This document shows, piece after piece, positions 18,834-32,552 of a stretch of 40,198 nt of DNA. Origin of the DNA: Candidatus Omnitrophota bacterium. GTDB taxonomy: Bacteria > Omnitrophota > Gorgyraeia > Zapsychrales > JBDRMG01. The stretch is taken from the NCBI GenBank assembly GCA_043812495.1, contig JBDRMG010000024.1, forward strand, positions 1 to 40,198, given 5' to 3'. Under the pieces are notes generated by a model, which worked only from the letters and a program-made list of their open reading frames with translations, searched no databases and had not been told where the DNA came from. Made by a program: the position numbers and the translations under genes. The first letter of the stretch is position 1; the number at the start of each line of letters is the position of its first letter.

Positions 18834-20552
18834 ATGAGAATTTCTAAAATCCAACCCGTTGTCATTTTCCTCACAATCATTTTCAATCCCCTTGTTGTGC
18901 TAGCAGAAAACGTGGAGTCGATTGTTTTGAGTGATGCCATAGAAGATTATCAGTTTTGGCTGGCGGGAACTTCCATCCTTGCGTCGATTCTCGTTGTCTT
19001 TGTCCTTTTGATGATCTCCTACAACTTGAAGCTGAGAGTTTCCCGCAAGCGCCTTGAAGCCGAATTGATACAGCGCACAGAGATGCAAAAAGAATTGATG
19101 CGCCGGGAAAAGAATTATCGCGAATTAGTCGAGAATGCCAATAGCGTTATTTTGCGAATGGATATGCATGGGAATATAACGTTTTTCAACAGGTTTGCTC
19201 AAGAATATTTTGGATTCACGGAGAATGAAATATTAGGAAAAAATGTTGTGGGCACGATAGTTCCTTCGATTGATTCCACCGGATTTGAGTTGACGAGATT
19301 AGCCAAGGAAATTATTGAACACGCGGAACGTTATCAGTTTAACGAAAACGAAAATATGACCAAAGACGGCCGTCGCGTCTGGGTGGCTTGGACCAATCGG
19401 GTCGTGGATGACGAAAAAAGCGGTTCCAAGGAAATTCTCTGCGTCGGAACAGATATGACCGAACGAAGGAAACAGCAACAGCAGCTCACAAAATTGTTCC
19501 GGGCCGTTGAACAGAGTCCCGTGAGCGTTGTCATCACAAATTACGAGGGCATCATCGAATACGTTAATCCAAGCTTTTTTCAATTTACAGGCTACTCCAT
19601 TGACGAGGCCCTGGGGCAAAATCTCCGTATTTTGAAATCAGGCGTTCATCCTCAGGAATTTTATAAAAATCTTTGGGATACGATTACAGCCGGAAAAGAA
19701 TGGCGAAATGAAATTTGCAACAAAAAGAAATCCGGTGAGCTGTATTGGGAGTTAACCGCGATTTCCCCAATTCGTAATGTCCAGGGCGTGATTACCCATT
19801 TTCTGGCCATCAAAGAAGATATCACGGATCGCAAGCAAGCTGAAAAAGTTATGTTTGACGTCTATAATGCCAAAAATGAATTTATCTCTATTGTGTCCCA
19901 TGAATTGCGCACACCCCTGACCGCAATCAAGGAAGGAATCTCTATCGTCCAGGAAGAAGAGACAGGCCGCCTCAACAAGAAGCAGCTGGACTTTCTTAAT
20001 TTGGCCAAGCGTAATACGGAACGGCTCTCTATTTTGATTAATGATGTGTTGGATTATCAGAAGCTGGAAGCCGGGCGTATGGAGTTTGCACTTGAGGAGG
20101 GCGATATCAATAGCGTTATAGAAGAAGTCAGGCAGACCATGGAGCCTGTGGCGACGAATAAAGGGATTCAGCTCCACGTGCGTTTTGGGGAAGATTTGCC
20201 GAGAGTAAAATTTGACCGCAATCGCATCTTTCAGGTCTTGGTCAATTTAGTCGGCAATGCCGTTAAATTCACGGATCAGGGTTCTGTGACCATCGAAAGC
20301 TCAAGACCCCAGCAAAGCCTGCATGTTTCGGTCATCGATACCGGGATCGGCATTAAGGCTGAAGACATGAATAAGCTTTTCCAAAGCTTCAGCCAGATTT
20401 CCAGTGAGCAAAGAAAAAAGGTGGGCGGCACGGGATTGGGTCTTGTGATATCGCGGCGTATTATGCAGCAACATGGCGGGGATATATGGGTTGAATCAGC
20501 GATTGGGAAAGGAAGTAGTTTCTCATTTTGGTTGCCGGTCCAGCAGCATTAA
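18834..20552 (+). CDS. Membrane-anchored PAS-PAS sensor histidine kinase
   Basis: SHELRTPL, NLVGNAVKFT, DTGIGI, GTGLGL. Confidence 0.92.
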   Translation: MRISKIQPVVIFLTIIFNPLVVLAENVESIVLSDAIEDYQFWLAGTSILASILVVFVLLMISYNLKLRVSRKRLEAELIQRTEMQKELMRREKNYRELVENANSVILRMDMHGNITFFNRFAQEYFGFTENEILGKNVVGTIVPSIDSTGFELTRLAKEIIEHAERYQFNENENMTKDGRRVWVAWTNRVVDDEKSGSKEILCVGTDMTERRKQQQQLTKLFRAVEQSPVSVVITNYEGIIEYVNPSFFQFTGYSIDEALGQNLRILKSGVHPQEFYKNLWDTITAGKEWRNEICNKKKSGELYWELTAISPIRNVQGVITHFLAIKEDITDRKQAEKVMFDVYNAKNEFISIVSHELRTPLTAIKEGISIVQEEETGRLNKKQLDFLNLAKRNTERLSILINDVLDYQKLEAGRMEFALEEGDINSVIEEVRQTMEPVATNKGIQLHVRFGEDLPRVKFDRNRIFQVLVNLVGNAVKFTDQGSVTIESSRPQQSLHVSVIDTGIGIKAEDMNKLFQSFSQISSEQRKKVGGTGLGLVISRRIMQQHGGDIWVESAIGKGSSFSFWLPVQQH

Positions 20553-20593
20553 ATTTCTAGATTTTGGAAAACAGATTTTCGGGAGCAGAGTCT

Positions 20594-20965
20594 ATGAAAA
20601 GAACTATTTTGTTGATTGATGATGAGTCGGATATTGTCCAGGTCGTTAAGTTTCGCTTAGAAAGCCTGGGTTTTGCGGTGGTGACGGCGCAGAGCGGAGA
20701 AGAAGGGTTAGCGAAGGCGAAAACAGAAAAAGCAGACCTGATTTTGCTGGATGTCATTTTAGGGGATACGACCGGTTTTGAGGTCTGCAAGAAAATAAAG
20801 AATGAAATTGATCCTCAAGCGAAAGTGATTATTTATACGGCCAAGATTGACGGCGTGGATGCCAAAAAAGCCAGAGAATCGGGAGCGGACGCCTTTACCG
20901 TGAAAACGGGCGATATGGATCCGATTAAAGAGGCGATTGACAAGGTGATCGGTTTAGAAAAATGA
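20594..20965 (+). CDS. Single-domain response regulator
   Basis: ILLIDDE, DLILLD; GGAG RBS before ATG 20594. Confidence 0.88.
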   Translation: MKRTILLIDDESDIVQVVKFRLESLGFAVVTAQSGEEGLAKAKTEKADLILLDVILGDTTGFEVCKKIKNEIDPQAKVIIYTAKIDGVDAKKARESGADAFTVKTGDMDPIKEAIDKVIGLEK

Positions 20966-21046
20966 TAAGGCATGGCTGGCTCTCAAAAATCCTTGTTCTT
21001 GTTAGGGGAAAGATTTATTTATGACCGTTACGAGAGACCTTTTCGC

Positions 21047-21700
21047 ATGAAAACTAAATGCATTTCTTCAATCATAATTTTAACTATTCTCATTTCTTCA
21101 ACTGTTGTATTTGCCGAGGACGACTGGGAGCATTGGGGAACATATACCTTGAATGTTAAGATCACGGATAAACTCAAATTCGTCCTGAGCCCAACAATTC
21201 GCCTCAGGGACGATGCAACAGATTTCTATTACTGGGAATCCAGTCAAGGTTTGGCCTACAAACTGAACGATCATTTTGAATTGGGATTGCATCATCTTTA
21301 TGACGATAGCAAAAATTCCTCAGGCCAATGGACAGAGGAGAACCGAGTCAAAGCAGAAATTACTGGAAAAGAAAATATTGGCCCGTTTACGTTAAGCGAT
21401 CGCGTACGTTATGAATACCGTGTGGTGGGAGGAAAACCAAAATCCAGCATCCGCAACAACATCAAGATTGACACGCCTTTTAAATATTTGATTTCAAATT
21501 TTCCCCCATATATCGCTAACGAATTTTTCTATGATTTTCGCATCAATGATTATAATGAAAACCGTGCCCAGTTCAGCGCTTCAAAAAAAATTAACAATAA
21601 TACAACTTTTAGCTTATATTATATGTTGAGAAGCAATAAAGCAGGAAGTGACTGGGCGGGAACTAATGTGATAGGAACAGTTCTATCTTCTTCGCTTTAG
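21047..21700 (+). CDS. DUF2490-like outer-membrane beta-barrel protein
   Basis: Signal peptide, EENR, RVRYEYR, PYIANEFFY, NENR; alternating strands. Confidence 0.75.
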   Translation: MKTKCISSIIILTILISSTVVFAEDDWEHWGTYTLNVKITDKLKFVLSPTIRLRDDATDFYYWESSQGLAYKLNDHFELGLHHLYDDSKNSSGQWTEENRVKAEITGKENIGPFTLSDRVRYEYRVVGGKPKSSIRNNIKIDTPFKYLISNFPPYIANEFFYDFRINDYNENRAQFSASKKINNNTTFSLYYMLRSNKAGSDWAGTNVIGTVLSSSL

Positions 21701-21850
21701 CATGTGTGCCTTTAATAGGCAAAGGTTGACAATTCGCTAAAGATACCGACAATAAAATAAATGCCAATTGTCATTTCGCGAAGCCGCTTAACTTCGAAAC
21801 GGAACTTGAGAAGACTAGAAATATTAGCCTAGGACCCAAGGAGAGATTGT

Positions 21851-23107
21851 ATGAGTAAGGAAATTATCAAAGTCCTTATCATTGAGGACAATCCTGATGA
21901 TGTCAATTTGTTACGTGAAATGCTCAGAAAGAGCGGGCGGGTTCAGTTTATAATTGAAAACGCAGAAGATCTTTCAAAAGGAATTGAATATCTTAAAGGG
22001 GGCCGTTACGACGCCTTGATCCTTGATCTGGGCTTACCGGATAGCGATTATCTTGAGACCTTAAGAAGAATAAAAGAACAGACGCAGGAGATGCCTGTGT
22101 TGGTTTTAACCGGTCTTTCTGATGAAGACATTAGTCGACAAGCTTTGCGCGAAGGGGCTCAAGATTATTTAATTAAAGGGGAGTTTAACAGTGAATTGCT
22201 GAAGCGCGCTATCTACTATGCCATCGAACGTATGAAGACGGAAAAAGTTCTAAAAGAAACAAAAAGACAAATGGAGTTTATTTTTGCTGCCACAAAGACA
22301 AACATGGATATTATTGATGCGGAATTTAATTTGGTCTATGTGGACTCTCACTGGCGAGAAATTTACGGCGATCCCAAGGGAAGAAAATGCTATGAATATT
22401 TCGCCGATCGCAAAACAATGTGTCCGACTTGCGGTATCCCCAAAGCTTTGGAAAGTAAAACGACCGTTGTAACGGAGAAAGTTTTGCCAAAGGAAGGCAA
22501 CCGGCCCATCCAGGTCACAACCACGCCATTTAAAAATGAAAAGGGAGAGTGGCTTGTCGCCGAGGTCAATGTAGATATTGCCGAACGTAAGACAATGGAG
22601 GAAGCATTAAGAAGAAGCGAAACGCTTTTTCGCACGGCAGTAACCAGTCTGCCTATCGGCGTATTCTTATTGAATGAACAAGGTGTATTTATACTCTCTG
22701 AAGGGCAAGGCCTCGAGATTATGGGAATATTTCCAGAAAAAGTACTTGGGAAATCGGCCTTTGAAATATTTGCCGATAATCGGAATATAATTGAATGCAT
22801 AAGATCCGCCTACAAAAAAGAGAAACAAAAGTTAATGATAGACGTTGATGTGTATTCGGTTCAAGTTGAGTGCTCGCCGATTGTTGATCAAGCTGGTCAA
22901 GTGGAAAATGTTATTGGTGTTATGATTGACCTGACCGATCGCATTAAAATAGAAAATGAGTTGAAAGAGAATTTGACAGAACTTAGACAGTTCCAGCAAG
23001 TAACAATTGACCGGGAAAATAAAATGATCGAACTAAAAAAAGAAATCAACGCATTGTCTCAAAAGCTCGGAAAGCCCGTGCCCTATGATTTATCATCGAT
23101 TGAATAA
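21851..23107 (+). CDS. Receiver-PAS-PAS protein without a recognisable output domain
   Basis: LIIEDN, LDLGLPD, GAQDYLIK; two PAS-like segments; coiled C-terminus RENKMIELKKEIN. Confidence 0.85.
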   Translation: MSKEIIKVLIIEDNPDDVNLLREMLRKSGRVQFIIENAEDLSKGIEYLKGGRYDALILDLGLPDSDYLETLRRIKEQTQEMPVLVLTGLSDEDISRQALREGAQDYLIKGEFNSELLKRAIYYAIERMKTEKVLKETKRQMEFIFAATKTNMDIIDAEFNLVYVDSHWREIYGDPKGRKCYEYFADRKTMCPTCGIPKALESKTTVVTEKVLPKEGNRPIQVTTTPFKNEKGEWLVAEVNVDIAERKTMEEALRRSETLFRTAVTSLPIGVFLLNEQGVFILSEGQGLEIMGIFPEKVLGKSAFEIFADNRNIIECIRSAYKKEKQKLMIDVDVYSVQVECSPIVDQAGQVENVIGVMIDLTDRIKIENELKENLTELRQFQQVTIDRENKMIELKKEINALSQKLGKPVPYDLSSIE

Positions 23108-23108
23108 G

Positions 23109-23228
23109 GAAATAGTAGAATTTTAATTTGCTGCACCCCACACCAACTTTATTGAAGTTGGTGTGGGGGTCAATTCGCGCATATGATTTATACTCCCTAT
23201 CGGTCGTATAAATCATGCGCTCATTGAA
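23109..23228 (-). repeat. Modular palindromic element, copy 3
   Basis: Shares GAAATAGTA, ATTTGCT, GGGTCAATTCGCGCATATGATTTA and TAAATCATGCGCTCATTGAA with the reverse complement of 29327-29455, but both hairpins differ. Confidence 0.88.
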
Positions 23229-23280
23229 AAGAAAACCATTGAGGATCAGGATCAGACGATGAATAGAGACGAGAAGATCT

Positions 23281-25359
23281 ATGAAGCGAAAAATAAGTCT
23301 TAAAGTAAAAATTATTTTTGTTGTCTGTTCAATTGCACTGGCGATTTCATCCATAAGTATTATTTTGGGATATTTATGGGGTTTAGATTTATTACGCAGT
23401 ATGGCTGGCGAGAACCATGTAAGAATGGCTAAACTGATGGCCAGCTCTATAGGTCAGATGATCGACCGTGAAATAAAAACACTTCAAGCCATTATGACGG
23501 ATATCGACTATATTGAAGCAGTTGAAGAAGCGAATACCCGCTATCATAATATAAGCTCAGAAGAGATTCAGACATACATGGCTGATATGGATAATCAATG
23601 GATCCATGGCTCGGAGGGCAATTTTGTCATAAAAGAGTATCTGGAAAAGCGAATAAGTCAAAAACTTAAGGTATTGCGTGAAGAAGATGAAGATATCGCT
23701 GAAATATTTATTACTGATCAGATGGGAGGGTTGGTCGCATCCTCCGGCAAAACAACCGATTTTTATCAAGCTGATGAGAAATGGTGGAAAGAAGCCTTTC
23801 ATGAGGCCAAAGGAAACATTTATGTAGAAAAAATCGAATTTGATGAGCCCGCAGGGATGTTAAGCATTGCTTTTGCGATTCCAATAAGAAACAGTGAAGG
23901 TAGAACTATCGGTGTATGCAAATGTGTCATCGATATCAACAATTTTTTTAGATTCCTCAAAGATTTTGCGGTTGGTCAGACGGGGCATGCTGTTTTGGCC
24001 AATAAAGAAGGCGATATCCTCTATCATCAGGGCATCAAGCCTTTTAGCATGAAAATTCTTAAACCGCAAGATTTTCAAAAACTATTACAAAATAAGCAGC
24101 AATGGAGCATCATGCAAGAAACCCATATCCACAAAAAGAAAATAATTATTTCATTTGCAAAGGTCAATCAACCTTTTCTGCTAGAAAGAGGCATCGTATG
24201 GATCGTCGCTATTGATCAGGATTACAAGGAAGTGTTTTTCCCGTTAAGGATATTTGCCGCTCAGAGGATTGTGCTTTTATTTTTTCTATTAATTATTTTG
24301 CTGCCGATAGGGTTCTTTATTGGAGAAAAATTTATCAGGCCTATTCGAACTCTTCAAGTAGCAACAAAGAGAATTGCGCAAGGAGATATGGATCATGTCA
24401 TTGAAATCAAAACAGGAGATGAAATCGAAGAGTTCGCCGATTCCTTCAACAGAATGACAAAGAAGCTCAAGGAAACAGCCACATCAGTATTAACGCTTAA
24501 TCAAGAAATAGCTATACGTAATGAAATGGAGCGTAACTTAAAGAAATCTAACGAAGATTTGGCCAAGAATGGGAAGGCGCTTAAAAACATTTTATTCGAT
24601 TTAAAGAAAACGCACGATGATTTGCAAAACGCACAACAACAACTGCTGCAGTCTGAAAAAATGGCGGCCGTCGGCCAATTGTCCGCAGGGATCGCTCACG
24701 AAGTAAAAAATCCTTTATCCATAATTTTGTTAAGCATCGAATCCCTTGAAAGCAAAATTGATCATTTAAGTGAGCAAAATAAAATGTATATCAAAATGAT
24801 CAAAGATGCCTGTGAACGGGCCAATAAAGTTGTCGTTGATCTTCTTGATTTCTCAAGATATTCTGAGCAGGAATTTGGTTACGTCAAGATACTTCAAGTG
24901 CTCAAAGACACTGTTTCCTTGGTAGAGCATAGCGCGAGAATTCAAAATGTCATGATTCAACAAGAATATTCAGGTGAGACCGATATGATCATTGAGGGCG
25001 ACCATATTTTATTACAGCAGGCTTTTCTTAATTTATTCACGAATGCGTTAGATGCGATAGAAAACACTGGTACGATAACCGTTAAGACTCATTTATTGCA
25101 AGATTCTGAAGAAATCGATAATATTAGGATTGAAGTTTCAGATACAGGCTCTGGCATGCCCCCGGAAGTTACTGCTAAAATTTTTGAGCCGTTTTTCACA
25201 ACAAAAGAACAAGGCAAAGGCACAGGGTTGGGTTTGAGTATGGCCTTCATGATCATTGGACGACATCATGGGAATATTCATGTGGAAAGCGAAGTAGGAA
25301 AAGGGACGAAATTCATTATAACATTACCGATATGTTCTGAAGATGAAAAAGGGGGCTGA
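23281..25359 (+). CDS. Sensor histidine kinase with Cache-like periplasmic domain and HAMP (NtrB-type)
   Basis: Two TM helices, TGDEIEEFADSFNRM, SEKMAAVGQLSAGIAHEVKNPL, GTGLGL. Confidence 0.92.
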   Translation: MKRKISLKVKIIFVVCSIALAISSISIILGYLWGLDLLRSMAGENHVRMAKLMASSIGQMIDREIKTLQAIMTDIDYIEAVEEANTRYHNISSEEIQTYMADMDNQWIHGSEGNFVIKEYLEKRISQKLKVLREEDEDIAEIFITDQMGGLVASSGKTTDFYQADEKWWKEAFHEAKGNIYVEKIEFDEPAGMLSIAFAIPIRNSEGRTIGVCKCVIDINNFFRFLKDFAVGQTGHAVLANKEGDILYHQGIKPFSMKILKPQDFQKLLQNKQQWSIMQETHIHKKKIIISFAKVNQPFLLERGIVWIVAIDQDYKEVFFPLRIFAAQRIVLLFFLLIILLPIGFFIGEKFIRPIRTLQVATKRIAQGDMDHVIEIKTGDEIEEFADSFNRMTKKLKETATSVLTLNQEIAIRNEMERNLKKSNEDLAKNGKALKNILFDLKKTHDDLQNAQQQLLQSEKMAAVGQLSAGIAHEVKNPLSIILLSIESLESKIDHLSEQNKMYIKMIKDACERANKVVVDLLDFSRYSEQEFGYVKILQVLKDTVSLVEHSARIQNVMIQQEYSGETDMIIEGDHILLQQAFLNLFTNALDAIENTGTITVKTHLLQDSEEIDNIRIEVSDTGSGMPPEVTAKIFEPFFTTKEQGKGTGLGLSMAFMIIGRHHGNIHVESEVGKGTKFIITLPICSEDEKGG

Positions 25360-25361
25360 TC

Positions 25362-25853
25362 ATGGATGCTAAGAAGAAGATCCTCGTTGTGGATGATGAA
25401 AAAGATCTATGTACCCTCATGAAAGGAATATTAGAAAACAGCGGGCAATATGAGGTTTTTGTGACTTACGATGGCCTTGAGGCCAAGAAGCTATGCCAAA
25501 AGGAGAAGCCGGATCTCATCTTCCTGGATTTTATTATGCCGAAAATAAGAGGCGATGATGTGATAAAATTACTTAAGAAGAATCCTGAAACGAAGGATAT
25601 CCCTATCATTATCATCAGCGGTTTTGGAGAATTGACTTGCTTGAGAGAAGAGGAACAATGGAGAGCATTCGTCAATATGGATAGCGTCCGGCAAGAAGGA
25701 AAGGTTCCCGGTAAGCTTAAACTGCCAAAGCTCGTTCCGAGCTTTCTTCGAGAACTTGGAGCGGAATCTTTCTTGCCCAAGCCATTCTCTAAAGAAAAAC
25801 TTCTTGATACCGCAAAGAGTGTGCTCAAAAAGACGTCGCAGACGAAAGGATAG
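25362..25853 (+). CDS. Response regulator receiver with internal insertion
   Basis: ILVVDDE, DLIFLD, KPF; extra residues after IISG. Confidence 0.88.
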   Translation: MDAKKKILVVDDEKDLCTLMKGILENSGQYEVFVTYDGLEAKKLCQKEKPDLIFLDFIMPKIRGDDVIKLLKKNPETKDIPIIIISGFGELTCLREEEQWRAFVNMDSVRQEGKVPGKLKLPKLVPSFLRELGAESFLPKPFSKEKLLDTAKSVLKKTSQTKG

Positions 25854-25861
25854 AAATTTCT

Positions 25862-26809
25862 ATGAGCGTGAAGAAAATTCTTTTGGTTGAAGACGAGCAG
25901 AATTTGAGGTTTCTCTTAAGCGAGAAGCTGAAAAGCGCTGGTTATGAAGTCTATGAAGCCGCCAACGGCGAGGAAGGCTTCGCGATAGCCCAGAAGATAA
26001 AGCCCGACCTGATTATTTCTGATATTATCATGCCCAAGAAAGACGGTAATCAATTTTATAAGGAATTACGTAAGATGGATTTTGGCAAGAATATCCCCTT
26101 CATCGTTTTAACAGCCAGAGCAAAGATGAGAGATTATTTTGAAGTTATCGAAGTGGATGATTTTCTTGAAAAGCCCGTGAAAACTGAAAAATTACTAACG
26201 ACGGTTAAAGATGTTCTCAAAAAGAGAGAACCAAAAATCGTCTCCAAAAAGACATTTCAAGATGATCATGCTGATGAAGATGTTCTTCGTTCTGGCATGG
26301 CTGCCGTGATTCCGGAGGAAACAGAGTATATCATTGATAAGGGTATGAGCGAAAAGTTTATCGTGGATGTGGGGCCCCAGAAAATCAATATAATAAAGGA
26401 CGATCAAGAATCTAAAAAAAAGTCTGGCAAAAAAGGAATACAAAAGGGTAAGAGAGTATTAATCGTTGAAAATGACATGACGGTTTATCGCCATTTGAGC
26501 GAGATGTTAGCGCAGAGTGGTTTCGAAGTCAAAGTTGCTCATACACCCGCTTCGTGCTTCGAAGAAGCCGTGCGATTTCGACCAAATATTATCTTATCGA
26601 AATATATTTTGCCAGGGATGAAGGTGGAGAAATTTCTAGAAATTTTGAGAGAAATGTCGAACTTAAAAGATATTCCCATCATTGTTTATAATTATCGCGA
26701 ATCAAGAGGCGATAAAAACGATATATTAAGCGCTGGCGCGTCCTTCTTTATGATAGACGCAAAGGAAGAGGAACTTCTTAATAAAGTCAGAGAATTCCTC
26801 GGAAACTAA
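25862..26809 (+). CDS. Tandem receiver protein (second receiver degenerate)
   Basis: First: LLVEDE, DLIISD, KP. Second: LIVEND, NIILSK. Confidence 0.85.
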   Translation: MSVKKILLVEDEQNLRFLLSEKLKSAGYEVYEAANGEEGFAIAQKIKPDLIISDIIMPKKDGNQFYKELRKMDFGKNIPFIVLTARAKMRDYFEVIEVDDFLEKPVKTEKLLTTVKDVLKKREPKIVSKKTFQDDHADEDVLRSGMAAVIPEETEYIIDKGMSEKFIVDVGPQKINIIKDDQESKKKSGKKGIQKGKRVLIVENDMTVYRHLSEMLAQSGFEVKVAHTPASCFEEAVRFRPNIILSKYILPGMKVEKFLEILREMSNLKDIPIIVYNYRESRGDKNDILSAGASFFMIDAKEEELLNKVREFLGN

Positions 26810-26880: not shown

Positions 26881-29172
26881 ATGACTGATTCCCTCAAGCA
26901 ATATTCCAAAAATACCGCCAGGCTGGCCTATATCCTCGGCCTAACATCGATTATTTCTCAAATTCTTTTACTGCGGGAATTGATTGTTGTTTTTGACGGC
27001 AATGAGATGGCCTATGCCGTGATTCTCGCGAGTTGGTTATTTTGGATTGCCGTTGGCAGCCTCACCATGAGCCGGTTCGTCGCTCGATGGAAAGACCCCA
27101 TCCTGGTGCTGATTCATTTATTATGGCTCATCTTTTTTATCCTCCCGGGAACCATCATTGTGACCCGTTTCTTAAAAGATATTATGCATGTGCAAACGGG
27201 TGCGTCGATCGAACTCTTTGCGATGATTCGGGCATGCTTTCTTTTAGTAGCTCCCCTGACTTTTCTTTTAGGAAGTGTCTTTACGTTACTCTGCCGATTA
27301 CCGATCAAGAATAAGAATGAAACAGCCCGCGTGGGAGCCATCTATCTCTGGGAAGCCAAAGGAGCGGCCATTGGCGGATTGGTTTTTAGTTTTGTTCTGA
27401 TCCATTTTTTGTCCGCCGTGCCTATGGCCTTCTTGATCGGGCTCATTAATCTTTACGCCGCGATGTCTCTGGCTGGGCGAAGGAATAAATCTTTTTCGGC
27501 CGGACTCTGTATTTTTGTCATGATTTTCATGCTGTATCTAAGCGGTGGAATCAATCAGCTGGATCAGTATACGCGTAGAATCCAATGGAAAGGTTTTGAT
27601 GTCGTTGATATCAGAGACTCCGTATACGGCAATCTGGTCTTGACCAGGCAATCGGATGGTTACAGCTTATTCGAAAACGGTTTGCTGTCCTACTCGACCG
27701 ATGATGAAGCCACAAGCGAGCAGAGCGTTCATTTTTCCCTTCTTGAGCATCCGGATCCACAAAATGTTCTTTTGGTCGGTAATGGCGTGGGCGGTGCTTT
27801 ACGGGAAATATTAAAGCATCCTGTTTCGCATGTCGACTATGCGGAGCTCGATCCTGAAATTATTGAAATTTCCAAAGATTATCTTCCCTTTGATGTGCTC
27901 AAACCCCTGGAGGATCAGCGCGTCAGCATTTGGTTTGTCGACGCACGATTATTTATCAAACGCGCGCGAAAGAATTACGACGTCATGATCATCAATCTCG
28001 CCGATCCCCATACCGCGATGATCAATCGTTACTATACGGTTGAATTTTTCGAAGAGTGCAGGCGGATTCTTAAATCCGGAGGCATTTTATCGCTGGGTGT
28101 TTCTTCAAGCGAAAATTATATCAGCGAAGAAACGCGTCAATTCTTACGCTCCGTTCATTCCACATTACAGGAGGTCTTTGCCGATGTGATTTCAATTCCC
28201 GGGGATCTCAATATCTTTTTGGCCTCTTCCAAAAGTAATCTTTTAACCGTTGATCCTCAAGAAATCATCCAACGCCTCCAAAGCCGGCATCTTGCCACAA
28301 AATATATTCGGGAATATTATCTTCCCTTTCGATTAAGCCCCGACCGCATCCACGATATTGAGGATATTCTTAAAGAAAAAGGCGTCATCAATACCGATCT
28401 GCGTCCGGTAACGTATTTTTATAATATTTTATTCTGGTCGACGCGGTTTAATCTGTCTTTTAAGAATTTTCTCGGGGCCTTTGGCTGGATGAAATTCAAA
28501 TACCTTTTTGCGATTCCGTTTTTTCTTTTCTTCTTTGGCCTGGTATTCAGGAAGAAAATCAATCACATGGCCATCACAGCCTCGATCATCACGACAGGAT
28601 TCTCAGAAATTGTGTTTCAGCTGATCGTGATCATTGCCTTTCAGACGCTTTACGGTTTTGCGTATTACAAAATCAGCCTGATCATGACGTCCTTTATGAT
28701 CGGGCTGGCCCTGGGAAGCCTGAGTGCGCAAAAGGTCATGTCTAAATCCATCGCGTTCATTTTCAGGATTTATCGTATCACTCAAACGGCCATATGCGTC
28801 TATCCGTTGCTTTTGCCGATCATCTATGTTGTTTTTCGCGATGCCCCAAGCACACAAAACCTGACTTTTTTCGCAACTACTTTTACCTTTTTGCCTATTA
28901 TTGCCGGGTACATCGGAGGTCTTCAGTATCCTTTGGCGACGCATCTGATCTCTTCAACGAGTTCCGAGAAAAAAGAAAGTGCTTTTTTTGCAGGGTCGTT
29001 GTACGCGGCGGATACCTTTGGGGCAGCGGTAGGGGCTTTGGTTACAGGGGCGCTTTTAATACCGTTATGGGGGATTAAGGCGGTGGTTTATTTTTGCAGC
29101 GCGGTCAATTTTGCGGTCTTGCTCTTGTTGCTGATGGCGCCCTATCCGAGGAGGTCATCGGCGCGCGAATAG
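26881..29172 (+). CDS. Fused multi-pass membrane / spermidine-synthase-like methyltransferase-fold protein
   Basis: TM blocks flanking DSVYGNL, LLVGNGVGG, YAELDP, VDARLF, YYTVEFF. Confidence 0.85.
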   Translation: MTDSLKQYSKNTARLAYILGLTSIISQILLLRELIVVFDGNEMAYAVILASWLFWIAVGSLTMSRFVARWKDPILVLIHLLWLIFFILPGTIIVTRFLKDIMHVQTGASIELFAMIRACFLLVAPLTFLLGSVFTLLCRLPIKNKNETARVGAIYLWEAKGAAIGGLVFSFVLIHFLSAVPMAFLIGLINLYAAMSLAGRRNKSFSAGLCIFVMIFMLYLSGGINQLDQYTRRIQWKGFDVVDIRDSVYGNLVLTRQSDGYSLFENGLLSYSTDDEATSEQSVHFSLLEHPDPQNVLLVGNGVGGALREILKHPVSHVDYAELDPEIIEISKDYLPFDVLKPLEDQRVSIWFVDARLFIKRARKNYDVMIINLADPHTAMINRYYTVEFFEECRRILKSGGILSLGVSSSENYISEETRQFLRSVHSTLQEVFADVISIPGDLNIFLASSKSNLLTVDPQEIIQRLQSRHLATKYIREYYLPFRLSPDRIHDIEDILKEKGVINTDLRPVTYFYNILFWSTRFNLSFKNFLGAFGWMKFKYLFAIPFFLFFFGLVFRKKINHMAITASIITTGFSEIVFQLIVIIAFQTLYGFAYYKISLIMTSFMIGLALGSLSAQKVMSKSIAFIFRIYRITQTAICVYPLLLPIIYVVFRDAPSTQNLTFFATTFTFLPIIAGYIGGLQYPLATHLISSTSSEKKESAFFAGSLYAADTFGAAVGALVTGALLIPLWGIKAVVYFCSAVNFAVLLLLLMAPYPRRSSARE

Positions 29173-29315
29173 TATTTGGCCTCTTTAAGGCCGGGCTTTT
29201 CTTTTTTTCCTGTCCCGAAAAACTCGAACATTTTCCTGAATTGAAATGTGACAAGAAGGGTCAAGAAAGCGCCGATTGTTTTTATAAAATCCCGCCGGTT
29301 GATCAAACCATTCAT
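29142..29315 (-). CDS. Unannotated 57-aa protein with twin-arginine motif and C-terminal KEAKYY
   Basis: Manual translation MNGLINRRDFIKTIGAFLTLLVTFQFRKMFEFFGTGKKEKPGLKEAKYYSRADDLLG*; GGGAG RBS; below the ORF-track cutoff. Confidence 0.75.
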   Translation of the reverse strand: MNGLINRRDFIKTIGAFLTLLVTFQFRKMFEFFGTGKKEKPGLKEAKYYSRADDLLG

Positions 29316-29326
29316 TATTTTCTCCC

Positions 29327-29455
29327 TTCAATGAGCGCATGATTTACATGATCCCGGATTTAAGTCGGGAGAATGTAAATCATATGCGCGAATTGACCCA
29401 GCCCGCCATTGATTCAGTAGCGGGCTGGGTATAGCAAATAAGAATTTACTATTTC
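29327..29455 (+). repeat. Modular palindromic element, copy 4
   Basis: TCAAT-GA-GCGCATGATTTACAT-GA-TCCCG...CGGGA-GA-ATGTAAATCATATGCGC-GA-ATTGA then ACCCAGCCCGC...GCGGGCTGGGT. Confidence 0.88.
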
Positions 29456-29462
29456 TTTTATT

Positions 29463-30437
29463 TTACCAAATGCCAGGAATCTCTGATTGGCAGAATTCAC
29501 ATTTTCCGTTTATGATATGGTTTTCTTGAATCATATATCCGACTCTTTTTACCAGAAGTTTTCCGTCGTTCGGACAATAGGTGTTATTGCCTTCATGGCC
29601 GGGGACATTGCCGACATAGACAAAATGCAGCCCTTCGCTGCGGGCGATTTCATAGGATTTTGTTAACGTGTCGATCGGTGTTGGCGGTAAATTTCGCAAT
29701 TGATGCATGGGCCAAAACCGCGAAAAATGTAACGGCATATCGCACCCGACATGGTCCTTGACCCAACGGCAGAGCTCACGGATTTCCTCTTGGGTGTCAT
29801 TCAGGGTCGGAATGATTAAATTGGTTAACTCGACCCAGACGCCTTGTTGCTGCATCGTCACAATGGTATTTTGGACAACGGATAGATCGAGAGAGCAGAT
29901 ATCCCGATAGAAATTGGCCTTGATGCTTTTTAAATCGACATTTGCGGCGTCGATCAAAGGGCAAAGGTCCAGAAGCGGCTCCTTTTCGATGAGGCCCGCC
30001 GTAATCATGAGATTTAAGATTCCTCGTTGATGAGCTAGGCCGGCCGTATCAAACATATATTCATAGAAGATGACAGGGTCGGAATAGGTGTAGGCGATGC
30101 TTTGACATTTGTTACGAATCGCCGCAGCCACGACCGCCTCCGGGGGGAGGTCGAAGTTGTGCGTTTCCTCGGGTGGTCGTTGAGAAATTTGCCAGTTCTG
30201 GCAGAATTTGCAATGGCCGTTACAACCGGCGGTCGCGATCGAAAAGGCACTAGTGGCCGGCTTCACATGAAAGAGAGGTTTTTTTTCAATAGGATCCACA
30301 TGGACAGCGCAAGGATTTCCGTACACAAGAGAGTAGAGTTTTCCGTCGATATTCATGCGCGCCCGGCAGTCTCCGCGCTGGCCGTTATCTAAAAGACAGT
30401 GCTTGGTGCACAGGTGGCATTGGATTTTTGTGGACAT
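29463..30437 (-). CDS. amrS: AmmeMemoRadiSam-system radical SAM enzyme (PFL-activating-enzyme-like)
   Basis: CHLCTKHC...GDCRAR, DPIEKKPLFH, CNGHCKFCQNWQISQ, IAYTYSDP, HFSRF.P, YVGNV, C-terminal Cys pairs. Confidence 0.9.
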   Translation of the reverse strand: MSTKIQCHLCTKHCLLDNGQRGDCRARMNIDGKLYSLVYGNPCAVHVDPIEKKPLFHVKPATSAFSIATAGCNGHCKFCQNWQISQRPPEETHNFDLPPEAVVAAAIRNKCQSIAYTYSDPVIFYEYMFDTAGLAHQRGILNLMITAGLIEKEPLLDLCPLIDAANVDLKSIKANFYRDICSLDLSVVQNTIVTMQQQGVWVELTNLIIPTLNDTQEEIRELCRWVKDHVGCDMPLHFSRFWPMHQLRNLPPTPIDTLTKSYEIARSEGLHFVYVGNVPGHEGNNTYCPNDGKLLVKRVGYMIQENHIINGKCEFCQSEIPGIW

Positions 30438-30462
30438 AGTTTCAATGTGTTCTTCGTTTATA

Positions 30463-30564
30463 GGTTAAGGTTACGAAGCCAGTGTCGTTGTTTGGTTAAG
30501 GATACGTTCTTTTCAATGACGAATAACATAACCGACAAACGAAACAGGCCTCGTTACCGTAACC
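30463..30564. repeat. About 45-bp imperfect inverted repeat with GGTTA/TAACC motifs
   Basis: 30463-30506 is approximately the reverse complement of 30520-30564. Confidence 0.8.
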
Positions 30565-30581
30565 GATCAACATAACCAAAT

Positions 30582-31235
30582 CTATTCTTTAATGGCTCTC
30601 CAGTATTTTGCTTCGCGGGGTTGGATGCCCGCTTTTCTTAATTTCTCTTTTAGGACCGTTGAATCAGATGACTCACTACGCGTTTCTTGAATAATCTTTT
30701 GACCCAAAACTTCAGGCACCAGAATCATCAAGCTTTTGTGGACGGCTTCAATGATCGCTTGACTTGTGATGGTGGCCTGGCTGATCCCATCGATATCTTC
30801 TCCGAGCTTAAAAGCGCTGCTTGTCTTAAGGCCGACGAATTGCTTGATAAAATCTCCAAGAGACGCGACATACGAAGAGGTTTCATGGTGGGAAACAACA
30901 TGCAATCCCGCAATGGTTCCTTGTGGGTCTACGCCCACCATGATGTTGATCGGTCCGACAAAGCCTTTGGTGTCAGGAACGATATCCAAAGTTGAATATA
31001 TGAAACCCAGAAACTCCTTGTGCCCAGTTTCTGGATTGACTCCTAATATTTTGATATAAGGAAACTGACCTTTTTGCTCGGTATAGCTTTGTGCCTCAGG
31101 AAAGAGAGTTTGCGCCATGTTCCGCTTAGCCTCTCCCAGCTCAGAGAGTTGGCGGTCCAAAGGACGACGGAAACTAAGCATTGCGATCCCAAGTAAAAGA
31201 GAAAAGATAATAACAAACAGGTACAGTTTTTTCAT
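30582..31235 (-). CDS. Membrane-anchored FMN-binding domain protein (RnfG/NosR-like)
   Basis: KGFVGPINIMVGVD, HHET, DGISQATITS flavinylation-like motif; C-terminal REAKYW. Confidence 0.85.
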   Translation of the reverse strand: MKKLYLFVIIFSLLLGIAMLSFRRPLDRQLSELGEAKRNMAQTLFPEAQSYTEQKGQFPYIKILGVNPETGHKEFLGFIYSTLDIVPDTKGFVGPINIMVGVDPQGTIAGLHVVSHHETSSYVASLGDFIKQFVGLKTSSAFKLGEDIDGISQATITSQAIIEAVHKSLMILVPEVLGQKIIQETRSESSDSTVLKEKLRKAGIQPREAKYWRAIKE

Positions 31236-31708
31236 ATGAGTTTATTTTACTTCTTCTGCGGCCATCGTGCAATGAGAAAACATTTCGGGAAACATTTCGG
31301 TGGCTGAGGTTGGGCGTCACCTTCAAAAAAGAGAAATATAAAATTGCGCCCAAAAATGTTTATTTTTGCGATCATGGAAGAGGATTATGAGACCACAATT
31401 CTTATCCAAAGAACAAAAATAAGCGGTGGATACTTCAACTCTCCCTCAGGATGTCTTGGCAAGGCAATCACCTTTTTTGGGAGAAATTATACGATCCACA
31501 AGAAAGTTATTCTGGATCAAGCGGGAAAGTCAAAAGGCTAAAAAACCCTTGCGGTGTTCGTAAAGGTTTTGATCTTTTTGCGGTTGCGATTTTTCTGTTT
31601 GATGCTTATAATATCAGACGAACCATGGGTTAAGACGTTTCCCTTAAACTCTTGAAAAGCAGACGTTTATTTGTCTATTGGACAGAAACTTTGTTACGGA
31701 GGAAAGCG

Positions 31709-32119
31709 ATGCCAGAAAAATCAAAACGAAAAACAACATTTAATTATTTAAATAAATTCCAAAAGAGAATTTTGTATCCGATTTTGGTTCCGAGTTTTAG
31801 CCTATGTCTTTTTTCCATGCTATGTCTGTCTTTTTATTATGAAATGAATTTGAACCAGAGTCATCTACAGCAGATCGACCCCTATCTGGTCAATTTCTTT
31901 GTTCCGGGGTTCCTTCTCGTTTGTCTCATGATGATGCTTTTTGTGACCCTTTGGATTCTCTTAATATCCAATAAGATTTTCGGTGCTTATGACCGGCTTA
32001 TCAAAGAGCTGGATGACATGCTCCAGGGAAAAGGAAAGAAAATCATAACTGTACGCAAAGGCGATGAAATGTTTAATGAATTATTGAAGCGTTTTAACGC
32101 CTTGCTGAAGAAAGACTAA
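31709..32119 (+). CDS. Small 2-TM protein with HAMP-like C-terminus (paralog 1)
   Basis: GGAGG RBS; SNKIFGAYDRLIKELD...VRKGDEM. Confidence 0.8.
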   Translation: MPEKSKRKTTFNYLNKFQKRILYPILVPSFSLCLFSMLCLSFYYEMNLNQSHLQQIDPYLVNFFVPGFLLVCLMMMLFVTLWILLISNKIFGAYDRLIKELDDMLQGKGKKIITVRKGDEMFNELLKRFNALLKKD

Positions 32120-32138: not shown

Positions 32139-32552
32139 ATGTCCGCACAGCGACTCAGAAAATCGTTAGCCAACATTAACCGCTATCAGAAGGAAATTAT
32201 TTATCCTGTTCTTGTGCCAAGCTTCGCCATCGGTCTTTTTACGTTGCTAAGTCTAGCCTATTACTACAATTTTGATTATCGCCTGGATACAGGGCTCTCT
32301 TTTGATCCGTTTTTTTTGAATTTTGTTATTCCCTTGTTTTTGGTGGTCCTTTTGTTCTTTATGGTCTTTATTTCGATCTGGATTTGCGGTGTATCGAACA
32401 GAATCGTCGGTCCTCATGAGCGGATTATTAGGGAATTAGACGACATCTTGGCGGATAAAGGTAAAAAACGCCTGACCATACGCAAAGATGATCAGATGTA
32501 TAAGGAACTCACGGATCGCATCAATGCCCTGATAAAAAAATTTGCAGGATAA
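32139..32552 (+). CDS. Small 2-TM protein with HAMP-like C-terminus (paralog 2)
   Basis: AGGAGG RBS; SNRIVGPHERIIRELD...IRKDDQM. Confidence 0.8.
   Translation: MSAQRLRKSLANINRYQKEIIYPVLVPSFAIGLFTLLSLAYYYNFDYRLDTGLSFDPFFLNFVIPLFLVVLLFFMVFISIWICGVSNRIVGPHERIIRELDDILADKGKKRLTIRKDDQMYKELTDRINALIKKFAG

Follow-up and report, generated by a model that had tools for sequence, protein, structure and literature searches.

In the 40,198-nucleotide stretch of a Candidatus Omnitrophota contig analysed here (henceforth the window) we identify a paralog of AmrS, the AmmeMemoRadiSam radical SAM enzyme, that lacks its N-terminal segment and lies between two genes whose products each end in the missing piece. 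This arrangement suggests that the enzyme is completed in trans, exported and docked to an electron donor. A preliminary description made from the sequence alone had proposed a split enzyme completed in trans by two alternative partners, and the N-terminal motif, the synteny and the predicted binding of one partner, a mini-protein, all support that proposal. We found no publication describing this arrangement in the literature searched. The features are as follows:

26881..29172, plus strand: convergent gene for a SpeE-like polytopic membrane protein, 763 aa, spermidine-synthase-like domain at its centre; recurrent partner of the AmrS clade
29142..29315, minus strand: mini-protein gene, 57 aa; Tat-type leader and detached first AmrS strand
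29145..29189, minus strand: mini-protein tail LKEAKYYSRADDLLG, residues 43-57; predicted AmrS interface, residues 41-52
29280..29297, minus strand: twin-arginine motif RRDFIK, mini-protein residues 7-12; R7 and F10 invariant, K12 at least 90% conserved (alignment A1)
29320..29440, no strand assigned: palindromic dispersed repeat (REP/MITE-like) between AmrS and the mini-protein gene; an insertion outside the conserved cassette
29463..30437, minus strand: AmrS paralog, 324 aa, without leader and first strand
30438..30581, minus strand: 144-nt spacer between the upstream donor gene and AmrS; unique in the genome, five in-frame stops
30582..31235, minus strand: upstream donor, 217 aa; anchor (residues 4-22), FMN_bind domain (residues 91-169) and C-terminal tail
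30585..30620, minus strand: tail PREAKYWRAIKE of the upstream donor; equivalent of the AmrS N-terminal segment, stopping at the hairpin-turn position

The AmrS paralog matches TIGR04337 with 350.5 bits (cut-off 220), its residues 3-323 aligning with model positions 10-332 of 349. Model positions 1-9 are absent and the protein opens with MSTKIQCHLC, which confirms the abrupt start previously noted. Both the N-terminal four-cysteine motif (C7, C10, C14, C24) and the CxxxCxxC motif (C72, C76, C79) are present (invariant columns, alignment A2). No upstream start is able to add the missing segment, the spacer being in the frame of both the donor gene and AmrS and carrying its five stops in that frame; nor does the motif occur in the other two frames of the spacer. 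In relatives the donor and AmrS genes abut or overlap. The same genome encodes a second AmrS copy, which is signal-less and full-length (609.5 bits).

That homologues should bear a (K/R)EAx(F/Y)(Y/W)-like motif ahead of the first CxxC, sometimes after a Tat signal, had been expected, and it holds: 20 signal-less AmrS proteins of the same order have ..Y.GRFW.. about nine residues ahead of CxLC, and 52 relatives with the segment in cis share the consensus EAxYYxKLxxxxVxCxLCP (Ala conserved in at least 90%), many of them with a twin-arginine leader before it. In relatives the segment follows 1) a Tat signal, 2) a TM or Sec-type leader, or 3) an FMN membrane protein of NosR/NapH-like type with which it forms a single polypeptide. 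Of the 80 best loci, drawn from many phyla, a motif-and-hydropathy script rule assigns a Tat-like leader in cis to 42 (36 after six were relabelled by eye) and a very hydrophobic TM/Sec-type leader without RR to 13 (15 by eye); leaders of the latter kind are likewise seen in the NosR fusions and in seven genomes from the order.

The downstream ORF displays NRRDFIK, an uncharged stretch of 14 residues and the terminal sequence LKEAKYYSRADDLLG, just as first described. Its relatives fall into 178 clusters at 50% identity (E <= 0.001; 1.84 billion representatives searched) and make up one family, the best 150 members of which are all 46-92 aa long and all end in glycine, with the C-terminal consensus LKEA[KR][YF]YxxxD[HD]LAG. 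In this set 144 members have the motif alanine; an RRxFL-like motif is seen in 121, and relaxing it to R[RKQN]xFL-like raises the count to 144. An HMM of the mini-proteins matches the N-termini of six in-cis AmrS ORFs, and the distance from RR to the alanine is similar in the two settings (median 38 in mini-proteins, 41 in cis forms). TatC is encoded in the window's genome.

Across the 151 genomes of the order a full-length mini-protein match was found in 52, in all 52 of them 0-380 nt downstream of the AmrS paralog and on the same strand. The paralog itself occurs in 65 of the 151 and is at least 55% identical in 53, of which 52 have the mini-protein; none was found in genome G105. In all 12 orthologous loci read both tails are present, the same tail type closing the upstream gene, so that the synteny and conservation anticipated for the three ORFs are upheld. 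The distribution of the mini-protein is complementary to that of the native segment: 20 of the 80 best loci have a short AmrS, 18 of them with a downstream Tat-type mini-protein (of the other two, the contig ends at L082 and L127 is ambiguous), whereas none of 59 longer forms has a mini-protein with the tail motif beside it. No donor was seen near the short form of genome G096 (locus L026). Given the recurrence in 12/12 loci, 52/52 genomes, 178 clusters and 150/150 glycine ends, the association of tails and AmrS goes well past chance.

These patterns bear on the idea that both motif-bearing ends are functionless relics of rearranged or duplicated AmrS genes, with AmrS acting alone or itself decaying. 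The mini-ORF indeed lies downstream rather than upstream of the enzyme gene, requiring a rearrangement or tandem duplication; its final 31 nt are shared with the 3' end of the convergently oriented SpeE-like gene; and the cassette in the window is broken by the spacer and the repeat element. The latter has 62 matches within its own genome (best 96% over 118 nt) and folds as RNA at -64.1 kcal/mol (z = -7.4); a weak match to a miRNA model on both strands at this position is simply the repeat's hairpin. However, the mini-protein is intact with the same ends throughout the 52 genomes and the 178 clusters, its tail columns are invariant while its linker varies, and a Shine-Dalgarno-like sequence precedes it in the window (AAGGGAG, 8 nt ahead of the ATG) as well as in L009, L012 and L013. 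AmrS, for its part, retains every Cys motif in the orthologue alignment, with a mean column identity of 73%. We therefore regard decay as the least credible of the explanations weighed here.

The upstream donor contains a single hydrophobic segment by hydropathy scan and an FMN_bind domain (Pfam, 60.5 bits), while its RnfG/NosR-like NCBIfam matches fall under the cut-offs (rnfG 55.1 versus 102; NosR 47.3 versus 1000). The earlier claim that this protein closes with the missing (K/R)EAxY(W/Y) segment is correct, its final residues before the stop being PREAKYWRAIKE. In two natural fusions, L017 (773 aa) and L018 (758 aa), the equivalent tail is contiguous with AmrS and the TIGR04337 match begins at model position 2; the order of elements is TM1, FMN_bind, five NapH-like TMs with two Fer4_5 stretches, a seventh TM and AmrS. 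The upstream FMN_bind protein is fused to AmrS itself in four genomes. Beyond the order sample only 10 of 20 split loci have an upstream donor, for which reason we consider it an accessory component. From the natural fusions, docking of its tail on AmrS is a candidate interaction.

Binding of the mini-protein to AmrS is predicted by structure modelling. Complex prediction gave a median ipSAE of 0.86 (runs 0.84, 0.87 and 0.86), with 0.02 for the best control; the score is the model's confidence, and its calibration, in which 116 of 157 solved complexes attain the ipSAE mark, as do 2 of 215 mismatched pairs, is only roughly valid here because the alignments supplied were our own. The runs concur in at least 84% of contacts, with a partner pLDDT of 56, and place the mini-protein tail against AmrS residues 4-9 and 32-41. 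The final five residues of the mini-protein, the invariant glycine among them, are not confidently placed. The predicted contacts of Y49 with C7 and of K44/E45 with AmrS residues 33-36 match, with the numbering shifted by +20, those of Y17 with C27 and of K12/E13 with the strand 53-56 in the model of an in-cis relative (pLDDT 94.7; mean 96 for residues 11-20). Thus, the tail is predicted to dock where the native segment pairs, as had been expected of a donated strand.

The PDB holds no solved AmrS structure, and its sole sequence relative by hmmsearch is the pyruvate formate-lyase activating enzyme (PFL-AE; E 1.3e-11 over residues 70-265; PDB 3cb8, 3c8f and 8fo0), the closest to the radical SAM core in both solved fold and sequence. 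Foldseek aligned the in-cis model with 3cb8_A at E 8.4e-14 and 19% identity (target-normalised TM 0.79). PFL-AE has neither the N-terminal Cys-rich domain on which the tails are predicted to dock nor the C-terminal Cys pair, and is a soluble, leaderless cytoplasmic enzyme. It acts on a glycine-containing loop, and this recalls a different explanation, namely that the tails are substrates or recognition peptides of a RiPP-like or cofactor-precursor system in which AmrS modifies the conserved Tyr/Trp or the C-terminal glycine. A small conserved peptide beside a radical SAM gene, with an aromatic pair and a glycine end in 150/150 members, would suit such a system. Yet the segment belongs to the enzyme itself in the 52 in-cis relatives, the signal-less AmrS proteins and the natural fusions; mini-proteins accompany only enzymes devoid of it (18/20 against 0/59); the predicted contacts map to the Cys-rich N-terminal domain, at the site of the native hairpin; and the terminal LAG is absent from mini-proteins of the Thermodesulfovibrionales type. 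We accordingly give a substrate role very little credence.

A more serious question is on which side of the membrane the completed enzyme acts. Radical SAM chemistry depends on SAM and on a reductant of low potential, neither of which is known beyond the cytoplasm; we know of no radical SAM enzyme acting outside it and of no SAM source there. The same split could hence serve a cytoplasmic AmrS, tethered by its donors to the inner face of the membrane beside the cytoplasmic Fe-S part of a NosR/NapH-like protein, if the RR leader were a plain membrane anchor or the topology predictions, which derive from hydropathy and charge counts only, were wrong. The uncharged stretch of the mini-proteins has a median of only 13 residues, and few of them (5/144) have an AxA site; charges are ambiguous at several small anchor proteins, L008 being more positive after its helix than before it. 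Further, the TM/Sec-type leaders without RR in 13 to 15 of the 80 relatives, and in the NosR fusions, could not bring a folded Fe-S domain through Tat; either such forms are not outside or the export model is incomplete.

Against a cytoplasmic site, the positive N-terminus RRDFIK followed by a hydrophobic stretch would place the mini-protein tail outside, and classical twin-arginine leaders are present in cis in 36 to 42 relatives. The other tail in the window comes after FMN_bind, a domain usually located outside the cytoplasm and flavinylated by ApbE; ApbE is encoded in this genome. By parity, the seven TMs of the fusions put AmrS on the FMN_bind side. Adjacent Memo-AMMECR1 partners also have lipoprotein-type leaders: among those read, the N-terminus has a hydrophobic leader in 10/10 and, by eye, a lipobox-like Cys in 8/10. 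On this balance a cytoplasmic site appears unlikely to us, though far from negligible.

The partners of this clade partly overlap with those of the signal-less AmmeMemoRadiSam system, whose gene-neighborhood link with Memo-like and AMMECR1-like proteins is noted by Balaji and Aravind 2007 (PMC2034487). The window's AmrS belongs to the same TIGR04337 family with the same four-Cys and CxxxCxxC motifs, and Memo-AMMECR1 fusions adjoin relatives of its clade in 35 of the 80 loci. It differs in lacking model positions 1-9, in being a member of a clade whose leaders (Tat, TM or Sec-type) are supplied in cis or in trans, and in being flanked by a flavoprotein and the SpeE-like membrane protein rather than Memo/AMMECR1. 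A lipoprotein-type Memo-AMMECR1 is encoded elsewhere in the genome, but since Memo-AMMECR1 occurs in 143/151 genomes of the order and the paralog in 65/151, their co-occurrence is uninformative on pairing there. The SpeE-like protein (Pfam Spermine_synth, 94.4 bits; NF037959, 85.4 bits, cut-off 40; Gly-rich motif GNGVGG) had been suspected of belonging to the same system, and its gene adjoins AmrS at 18 of 25 loci within the order and at 39 of 80 from other lineages.

The upstream donor resembles NosR/NapH/RnfG-type proteins in having FMN_bind after an N-terminal anchor and in retaining the threonine of the ..S-x-A-T.. stretch in a genome with ApbE, and its relatives add NapH-like TMs, Fer4_5 stretches and ferredoxin domains; unlike those proteins, it scores far under the family cut-offs, has no NapH-like membrane part and bears the AmrS strand at its C-terminus. 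The mini-protein recalls the signal-bearing partners of Tat hitchhikers, signal-less subunits that are co-exported with them, such as the [NiFe] hydrogenase small and large subunits and the formate dehydrogenases (PMC10924467). The presence of TatC and the predicted binding fit this likeness; however, the carrier here is a leader plus one beta-strand completing the passenger fold, not a functional subunit, and is homologous to the passenger's own lost N-terminus. The literature searched yielded no published Tat carrier of this composition. Donor-strand complementation in chaperone-usher pili and engineered split proteins likewise completes a strand-deficient fold with a strand of another polypeptide, but there is no homology, the strand here being the enzyme's own, split off at the hairpin turn by gene fission and supplied by two different carriers; the term is thus an analogy to pilus assembly rather than a claim of common mechanism.

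Taken as a whole, the best explanation, to which we assign a probability of about 0.6, is a split member of a probably extracytoplasmic AmmeMemoRadiSam clade that uses Tat hitchhiking followed by docking to a flavin donor. Most clade members combine the leader (Tat, or a TM/Sec-type anchor), the (K/R)EAxY(Y/W) strand and the enzyme in one polypeptide, the strand forming a beta-hairpin with the CxLC strand and a bridge to another strand within the Cys-rich N-terminal domain. The AmrS gene of the window begins just past the hairpin turn, and the preceding piece is encoded twice, on two other genes. The mini-protein may bind AmrS in the cytoplasm, after the enzyme has folded and acquired its clusters, by complementing the missing strand, and take it through Tat as a hitchhiker, which would make export conditional on a folded N-terminal domain. 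The upstream protein presents the same strand after what would be an outward-facing FMN_bind domain; in relatives the strand comes after one TM helix or an entire NosR/NapH-like FMN/Fe-S conduit. Against this explanation, both tails should need one and the same single site; most likely the upstream tail would displace the mini-protein from it. Following such a hand-over, the donor would dock AmrS, once exported, to the membrane and to a flavin source of electrons, and the SpeE-like protein would be another partner, which may handle SAM or a product derived from it. The modification of an RNA base proposed by Balaji and Aravind 2007 (PMC2034487) for the AmmeMemoRadiSam system would not be compatible with such an exported form of AmrS.

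The part of the window considered here encodes the following features.

31235..30582, minus strand: FMN_bind protein, 217 aa, with one N-terminal hydrophobic segment (PF04205 at 60.5 bits, cut-off 22)
30437..29463, minus strand: AmrS, a radical SAM enzyme, 324 aa (TIGR04337 at 350.5 bits, cut-off 220)
29315..29142, minus strand: mini-ORF, 57 aa, matching no Pfam or NCBIfam family
26881..29172, plus strand (convergent): SpeE-like polytopic membrane protein, 763 aa, with a central spermidine-synthase-like domain

AmrS starts at MSTKIQCHLC, and its match to TIGR04337 begins at model position 10, leaving the N-terminal positions 1-9 uncovered; its CxxxCxxC radical SAM motif (C72, C76 and C79) and the N-terminal cysteines C7, C10, C14 and C24 are invariant in our alignment of AmrS relatives. 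The missing segment is encoded on the two genes adjoining AmrS: the upstream flavoprotein terminates in PREAKYWRAIKE, and the mini-protein displays NRRDFIK, a short uncharged stretch of 14 residues and the C-terminal end LKEAKYYSRADDLLG. Translation and the TIGR04337 alignment thus bear out what the preliminary description had stated about the AmrS start and both ORF ends. Scans of one small anchor protein, like those of the mini-protein, matched no Pfam or NCBIfam family. The 3' end of the mini-ORF overlaps the convergent SpeE-like gene by 31 nt. We rejected the possibility that the flavoprotein and AmrS are expressed as one gene by readthrough or frameshifting: the 144-nt spacer contains five in-frame stops, and its other frames are motif-free. 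No alternative AmrS start was found in this spacer in frame with the flavoprotein gene.

The segment absent from the window AmrS is a normal part of the family, because it is present in 20 signal-less (cytoplasmic-type, full-length) copies from the order Zapsychrales, each of which contains a ..Y.GRFW.. motif about 9 residues before the CxLC and has no leader. The window's genome encodes such a second AmrS on another contig (609.5 bits, TIGR04337 model positions 1-348), with the N-terminus ..YSARYYQKEKDQRITCALCP. This gene (locus L001, G000:C58:17345-21385, minus strand) lies directly after two polytopic membrane genes, which by-eye reading of the sequence likens to RnfE and RnfA, and is followed by an exonuclease III-like gene. 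In four genomes of the order a single polypeptide combines a first TM, FMN_bind, five NapH-like TMs, a seventh TM, a linker, the segment ..FHMAAFFRSLADNIVQCTLCP.. and AmrS; in the two of these fusions that were scanned (L017 and L018) the TIGR04337 match begins at model position 2. In seven more genomes of the order the motif is in cis, behind a single hydrophobic leader at the N-terminus. Hence the N-terminal motif that the preliminary description gave for the family is real, being seen both in the signal-less copies and in these cis relatives. A profile search detected the mini-protein in none of the eleven cis genomes of the order (four fusions and seven leader forms). The mini-protein HMM also recognizes six in-cis AmrS ORFs by their N-termini, and the spacing between RR motif and motif alanine is similar in both (median of 38 residues in the mini-proteins and 41 in the cis forms). 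A word-index search for longer relatives of the mini-protein recovered none at E <= 0.01, which is weak evidence; the locus analysis later found in-cis relatives.

We then compared 12 orthologous loci of the order, at 51-67% AmrS identity. In all 12 the gene 5' of AmrS has the C-terminal sequence ..AGLxPxEAKYWxx and either directly adjoins or overlaps AmrS at its start, and a downstream ORF of 47-68 aa has a twin-arginine-type motif and the end ..KEA[KR][YHF]YxxxDxLAG. The upstream carrier takes three forms: 1) a single-TM protein of 68-96 aa located 3' of a NosR/NapH-like FMN_bind and Fer4 membrane protein; 2) a fusion of 473-498 aa that joins this membrane protein to the TM and the tail; 3) an FMN_bind-only protein, as in the window. 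The mini-protein profile matches over its full length in 52 of 151 genomes sampled from the order, in every case on the same strand as the paralog (the AmrS related to that of the window, as distinct from the signal-less copy) and 0-380 nt 3' of it. The synteny of the three ORFs and the conservation of the 57-aa ORF, on both of which the proposal of a split enzyme depended, therefore hold. The paralog is present at >=55% identity in 53 genomes of the order, and only one of these (G105, L027, contig C61) is missing the mini-protein, with the upstream tail present. Conversely, the mini-protein occurs in 0/12 genomes of the order with a lower-identity paralog (11 with the leader in cis and one short without a donor). 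The latter short AmrS (G096, L026, contig C43) has no donor gene visible within about 2.5 kb, in a genome that is 85% complete. That both motif-bearing ends are mere relics is a reading to which we assign a low probability.

The second aromatic residue of the segment is Trp in 11 of the 12 upstream tails and Tyr in 11 of the 12 mini-proteins; the two donors therefore represent distinct lineages of the strand. By eye, the two tails within one genome can also be alike, with AQF found twice in L012 and RPAR twice in L014.

A search of 1.84 billion representative proteins with the mini-protein profile (E <= 0.001) recovered 178 clusters. The best 150 of these 178 are all 46-92 aa long, and display the terminal Gly in 150, the motif Ala in 144, Tyr as second aromatic in 137 and an RRxFL-like motif in 121; the median uncharged stretch of the family is 13 residues. 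Where public sources name these proteins at all, it is as 'hypothetical protein' of Candidatus Omnitrophota. Pirellulales MAGs (L115, L118 and L129) encode mini-proteins 3' of a short AmrS with a different, longer tail (..PRRFVRAVRLGKYPG...KWSG), while those of Thermodesulfovibrionales end in ..KEAMFWRKLD, without LAG. Given these differing tails, the terminal Gly is confined to a part of the family.

Scanning one genome per species, we found 580 AmrS relatives and classified the best 80 (46-63% identity), which come from MAGs labelled Omnitrophota, Thermodesulfovibrionales, Planctomycetota, KSB1, Zixibacteria, Thermodesulfobacteriota and others.

N-terminus classes assigned by script to the best 80 of 580 AmrS relatives
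Tat-like leader in cis: 42 loci (36 after six were moved by eye)
Short: 20 loci
TM/Sec-type leader in cis: 13 loci
Other: 4 loci
No ORF found: 1 locus

Within these best 80, a downstream Tat-type mini-protein accompanies 18 of the 20 short forms (17 recognized by pattern and one by HMM); of the two remaining, L082 stops at the contig end and L127 is ambiguous. The 59 forms with a longer N-terminus have no mini-protein with the tail motif, the four pattern matches there being tail-less. The upstream donor was detected in only 10 of the 20 split loci outside the order sample and, on this basis, looks accessory. In a FastTree phylogeny of 122 AmrS domains, with 36 Tat-like cis loci kept after the by-eye relabelling, all 33 split forms fall within one group of 36 rows (support 80), and 21 signal-less copies are separate from the split forms (support 83). 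In the group of split forms the state changes 3 times or more, and well-supported branches force 2 or more of these changes. With modest tree supports, the simplest, tentative reading of these sequences is that fission happened once or a few times long ago and that the split form then spread across phyla.

These comparisons establish, at the level of sequence, that each tail is a detached copy of the first strand of AmrS itself. The enzyme has the hallmarks of one split by gene fission and presumably completed in trans, namely a homologous fragment, natural fusions, and mutual exclusion of the fragment and the cis segment.

To examine the fit of the tail, we ran a complex prediction on AmrS and mini-protein residues 25-57, each with its own alignment. 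The ipSAE was 0.84, 0.87 and 0.86 over three runs and 0.02 for the best control; at the mark used, 116 of 157 solved complexes pass, as do 2 of 215 mismatched pairs, a rough calibration given that our own alignments were supplied. The runs share at least 84% of contacts, and the mini-protein has a pLDDT of 56. The predicted interface comprises mini-protein residues 41-52 and AmrS residues 2, 4-9, 15, 27, 30, 32-41, 89, 94, 96, 125-127, 151, 153-154 and 157; residues 53-57 of the mini-protein, including the invariant Gly, are placed with low confidence. The high score is unlikely to stem from a remembered complex because the PDB holds no AmrS structure, with PFL-AE its sole sequence relative there; PFL-AE is also the best structural match. 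We also modeled a cis form (fragment of L053; alignment of 52 sequences), which yielded a pLDDT of 94.7 (mean of 96 for residues 11-20). In this model the motif forms a bridge at K12-E13, and its strand Y17-D21 pairs with T24-C27 in a hairpin. With an offset of +20, the predicted trans contact Y49/C7 corresponds to Y17/C27 in cis, and the contact of K44/E45 with residues 33-36 corresponds to the position of K12/E13 beside strand 53-56. The mini-protein tail is thus predicted at the native N-terminal strand position, the outcome by which the proposed complementation was to be judged, and the mini-protein is predicted to bind at the native AmrS site. As both donors end near the hairpin turn and AmrS starts just after it, this turn appears to be the fission point. 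A radical SAM enzyme next to a small peptide might also be a maturase acting on it, with the tail as a RiPP or cofactor precursor. This has a low probability: the tail is the enzyme's own first strand in the cis relatives and has a predicted seat on the N-terminal domain, and so does not present itself as a substrate.

For the side of the membrane on which AmrS resides there are arguments both ways, and all topology assignments rest on hydropathy. Motif and hydropathy reading of the mini-protein (NRRDFIK, of the S/T-R-R-x-F-L-K type, and 14 uncharged residues) suggests a Tat signal, and the genome encodes TatC (216.7 bits, contig C2). An outward location is favored by the twin-arginine leaders in cis in 36 to 42 of the best 80 of 580 loci and by the window tail being C-terminal to an FMN_bind domain that is itself behind an N-terminal anchor. 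Likewise, the seven hydrophobic segments and charge counts of the fusions place the FMN_bind loop outside, putting AmrS on the FMN_bind side. Against it stand the TM/Sec-type leaders and fusions without an RR motif, since a folded Fe-S domain could not pass through Sec behind such leaders; moreover, we know of no SAM pool outside the cytoplasm. Very hydrophobic Sec-type or signal-anchor leaders lacking RR are seen in L057, L068, L089, L091, L123 and others, and in L019-L025.

The FMN_bind domain of the upstream donor scores below the cut-off of every NCBIfam equivalog. At the putative flavinylation site, which we take to be of the [S/T]-G-A-[T/S] type, the window protein reads ..DGISQATITS.., with Gln at the position of the motif Gly, while L017 has SGAT and L018 has TGAT; an ApbE transferase is encoded in the window's genome (254.6 bits).

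A Memo-AMMECR1 fusion adjoins AmrS in 35 of the best 80 of 580 loci. All ten of its N-termini that we inspected have a hydrophobic leader, and eight have, by eye, a lipobox-like Cys, features that also speak for an outward location of AmrS. The window itself contains no Memo-like or AMMECR1-like gene and hence no three-gene AmmeMemoRadiSam neighborhood; its genome encodes a signal-less 305-aa Memo and, on another contig, a 521-aa Memo-AMMECR1 with ..FLASC.. after a hydrophobic stretch, which together with TatC and ApbE counts on the same side. As Memo-AMMECR1 is found in 143 of the 151 genomes of the order with or without the paralog (itself in 65/151), it is no marker of the paralog's partner there.

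The convergent spermidine-synthase-like gene had been suspected to belong to the same system, and it proved to be a recurrent neighbor: within the order, 18 of 25 loci (short flanks, counting the window and the fusion and anchored forms) have a relative of it next to AmrS, as found also in 39 of the best 80 of 580 broader loci. Its product does not reach SpeE equivalog level (best equivalog PRK03612, 192.3 bits against a cut-off of 472), and the sole model passed is the subfamily NF037959 (fused MFS/spermidine synthase; 85.4 bits against 40). The glycine-rich motif, which in SpeE is presumably of the GGGDGG type, is here GNGVGG. The protein also has a 39-residue uncharged stretch; judging from hydropathy, this may hold two helices, in which case there would be 7+7 TMs and an outward-facing soluble domain.

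AmrS is separated from the mini-protein gene by a 147-nt gap, in which lies a palindromic dispersed repeat (window 29320-29440) with 62 matches across the genome, the best being 96% over 118 nt on contig C2, and a second in-window copy near 23167-23228; in relatives the same gap is only 10-80 nt. As RNA the repeat folds into three hairpins (z = -7.4) ending just 5' of the mini-ORF ribosome-binding site. An Rfam scan of 28900-31700 returned only a weak match to a miRNA model on both strands, which is this repeat, and a promoter and terminator scan gave counts close to the shuffled expectation. Directly upstream of the SpeE-like gene is a block of two-component genes (18834-26809, plus strand) coding for two histidine kinases, one PAS and one dCache/HAMP, and for four proteins with receiver domains, of which one has two. 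Two tandem small membrane paralogs (31652-32119 and 32139-32552, plus strand; 46% identity, E 5e-46) are without a Pfam match, and a third relative (L132:1-342, minus strand; E 4e-13 over 34 residues, cut by the locus end) adjoins the Memo-AMMECR1 lipoprotein gene on contig C16. Genes for response regulators are found on the flanks of both sites and, together with the small membrane proteins, may constitute a shared regulatory module.

We propose that the mini-protein would carry folded AmrS through Tat, and that the anchored upstream tail would afterwards dock it to the flavin donor. Both tails are expected at one AmrS site; a hand-over of AmrS from one to the other is our preferred guess, and only a guess. 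Binding of the trans leader to only a correctly folded N-terminal domain would provide built-in proofreading. AmrS could then pass to the membrane-anchored strand on a flavinylated electron conduit, which would reduce its cluster. The SpeE-like protein, perhaps with 7+7 TMs, an outward SAM-type domain and GNGVGG replacing the dcSAM-selective motif, might supply SAM or remove products, and AmrS would act with the lipoprotein Memo-AMMECR1 on an envelope substrate. To this extracytoplasmic radical SAM chemistry as a whole, with Tat export of folded AmrS by a trans leader, a flavin conduit, SpeE-like SAM handling, Memo-AMMECR1 and an envelope substrate, we give a somewhat less than even probability of about 0.4. 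Our full-text literature search returned no paper describing an AmrS as exported or split. In the sections consulted of PMC10924467, a source on Tat hitchhikers, and of PMC13128918, radical SAM enzymes figure only in passing or as a cytoplasmic maturase.

The split AmrS offers a natural split enzyme in which a strand of roughly 15 residues could be titrated against the enzyme body. A Tat signal peptide acting in trans, consisting of signal and strand alone, would be a minimal hitchhiker and could become a tool for the export of folded cargo. Radical SAM enzymes are treated as strictly cytoplasmic, and to our knowledge few enzyme systems that lack a known reaction are as widespread as the AmmeMemoRadiSam trio. 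As a candidate for radical SAM chemistry at the external side of the membrane, the cassette would bring an electron conduit of its own and a membrane protein that might handle SAM. Should export prove false, the cassette would still be an unusual tether of a soluble enzyme to a membrane electron donor. Should export prove true, the questions become those of the substrate, which would lie in the envelope rather than be RNA, and of the route by which SAM and low-potential electrons reach the periplasm.
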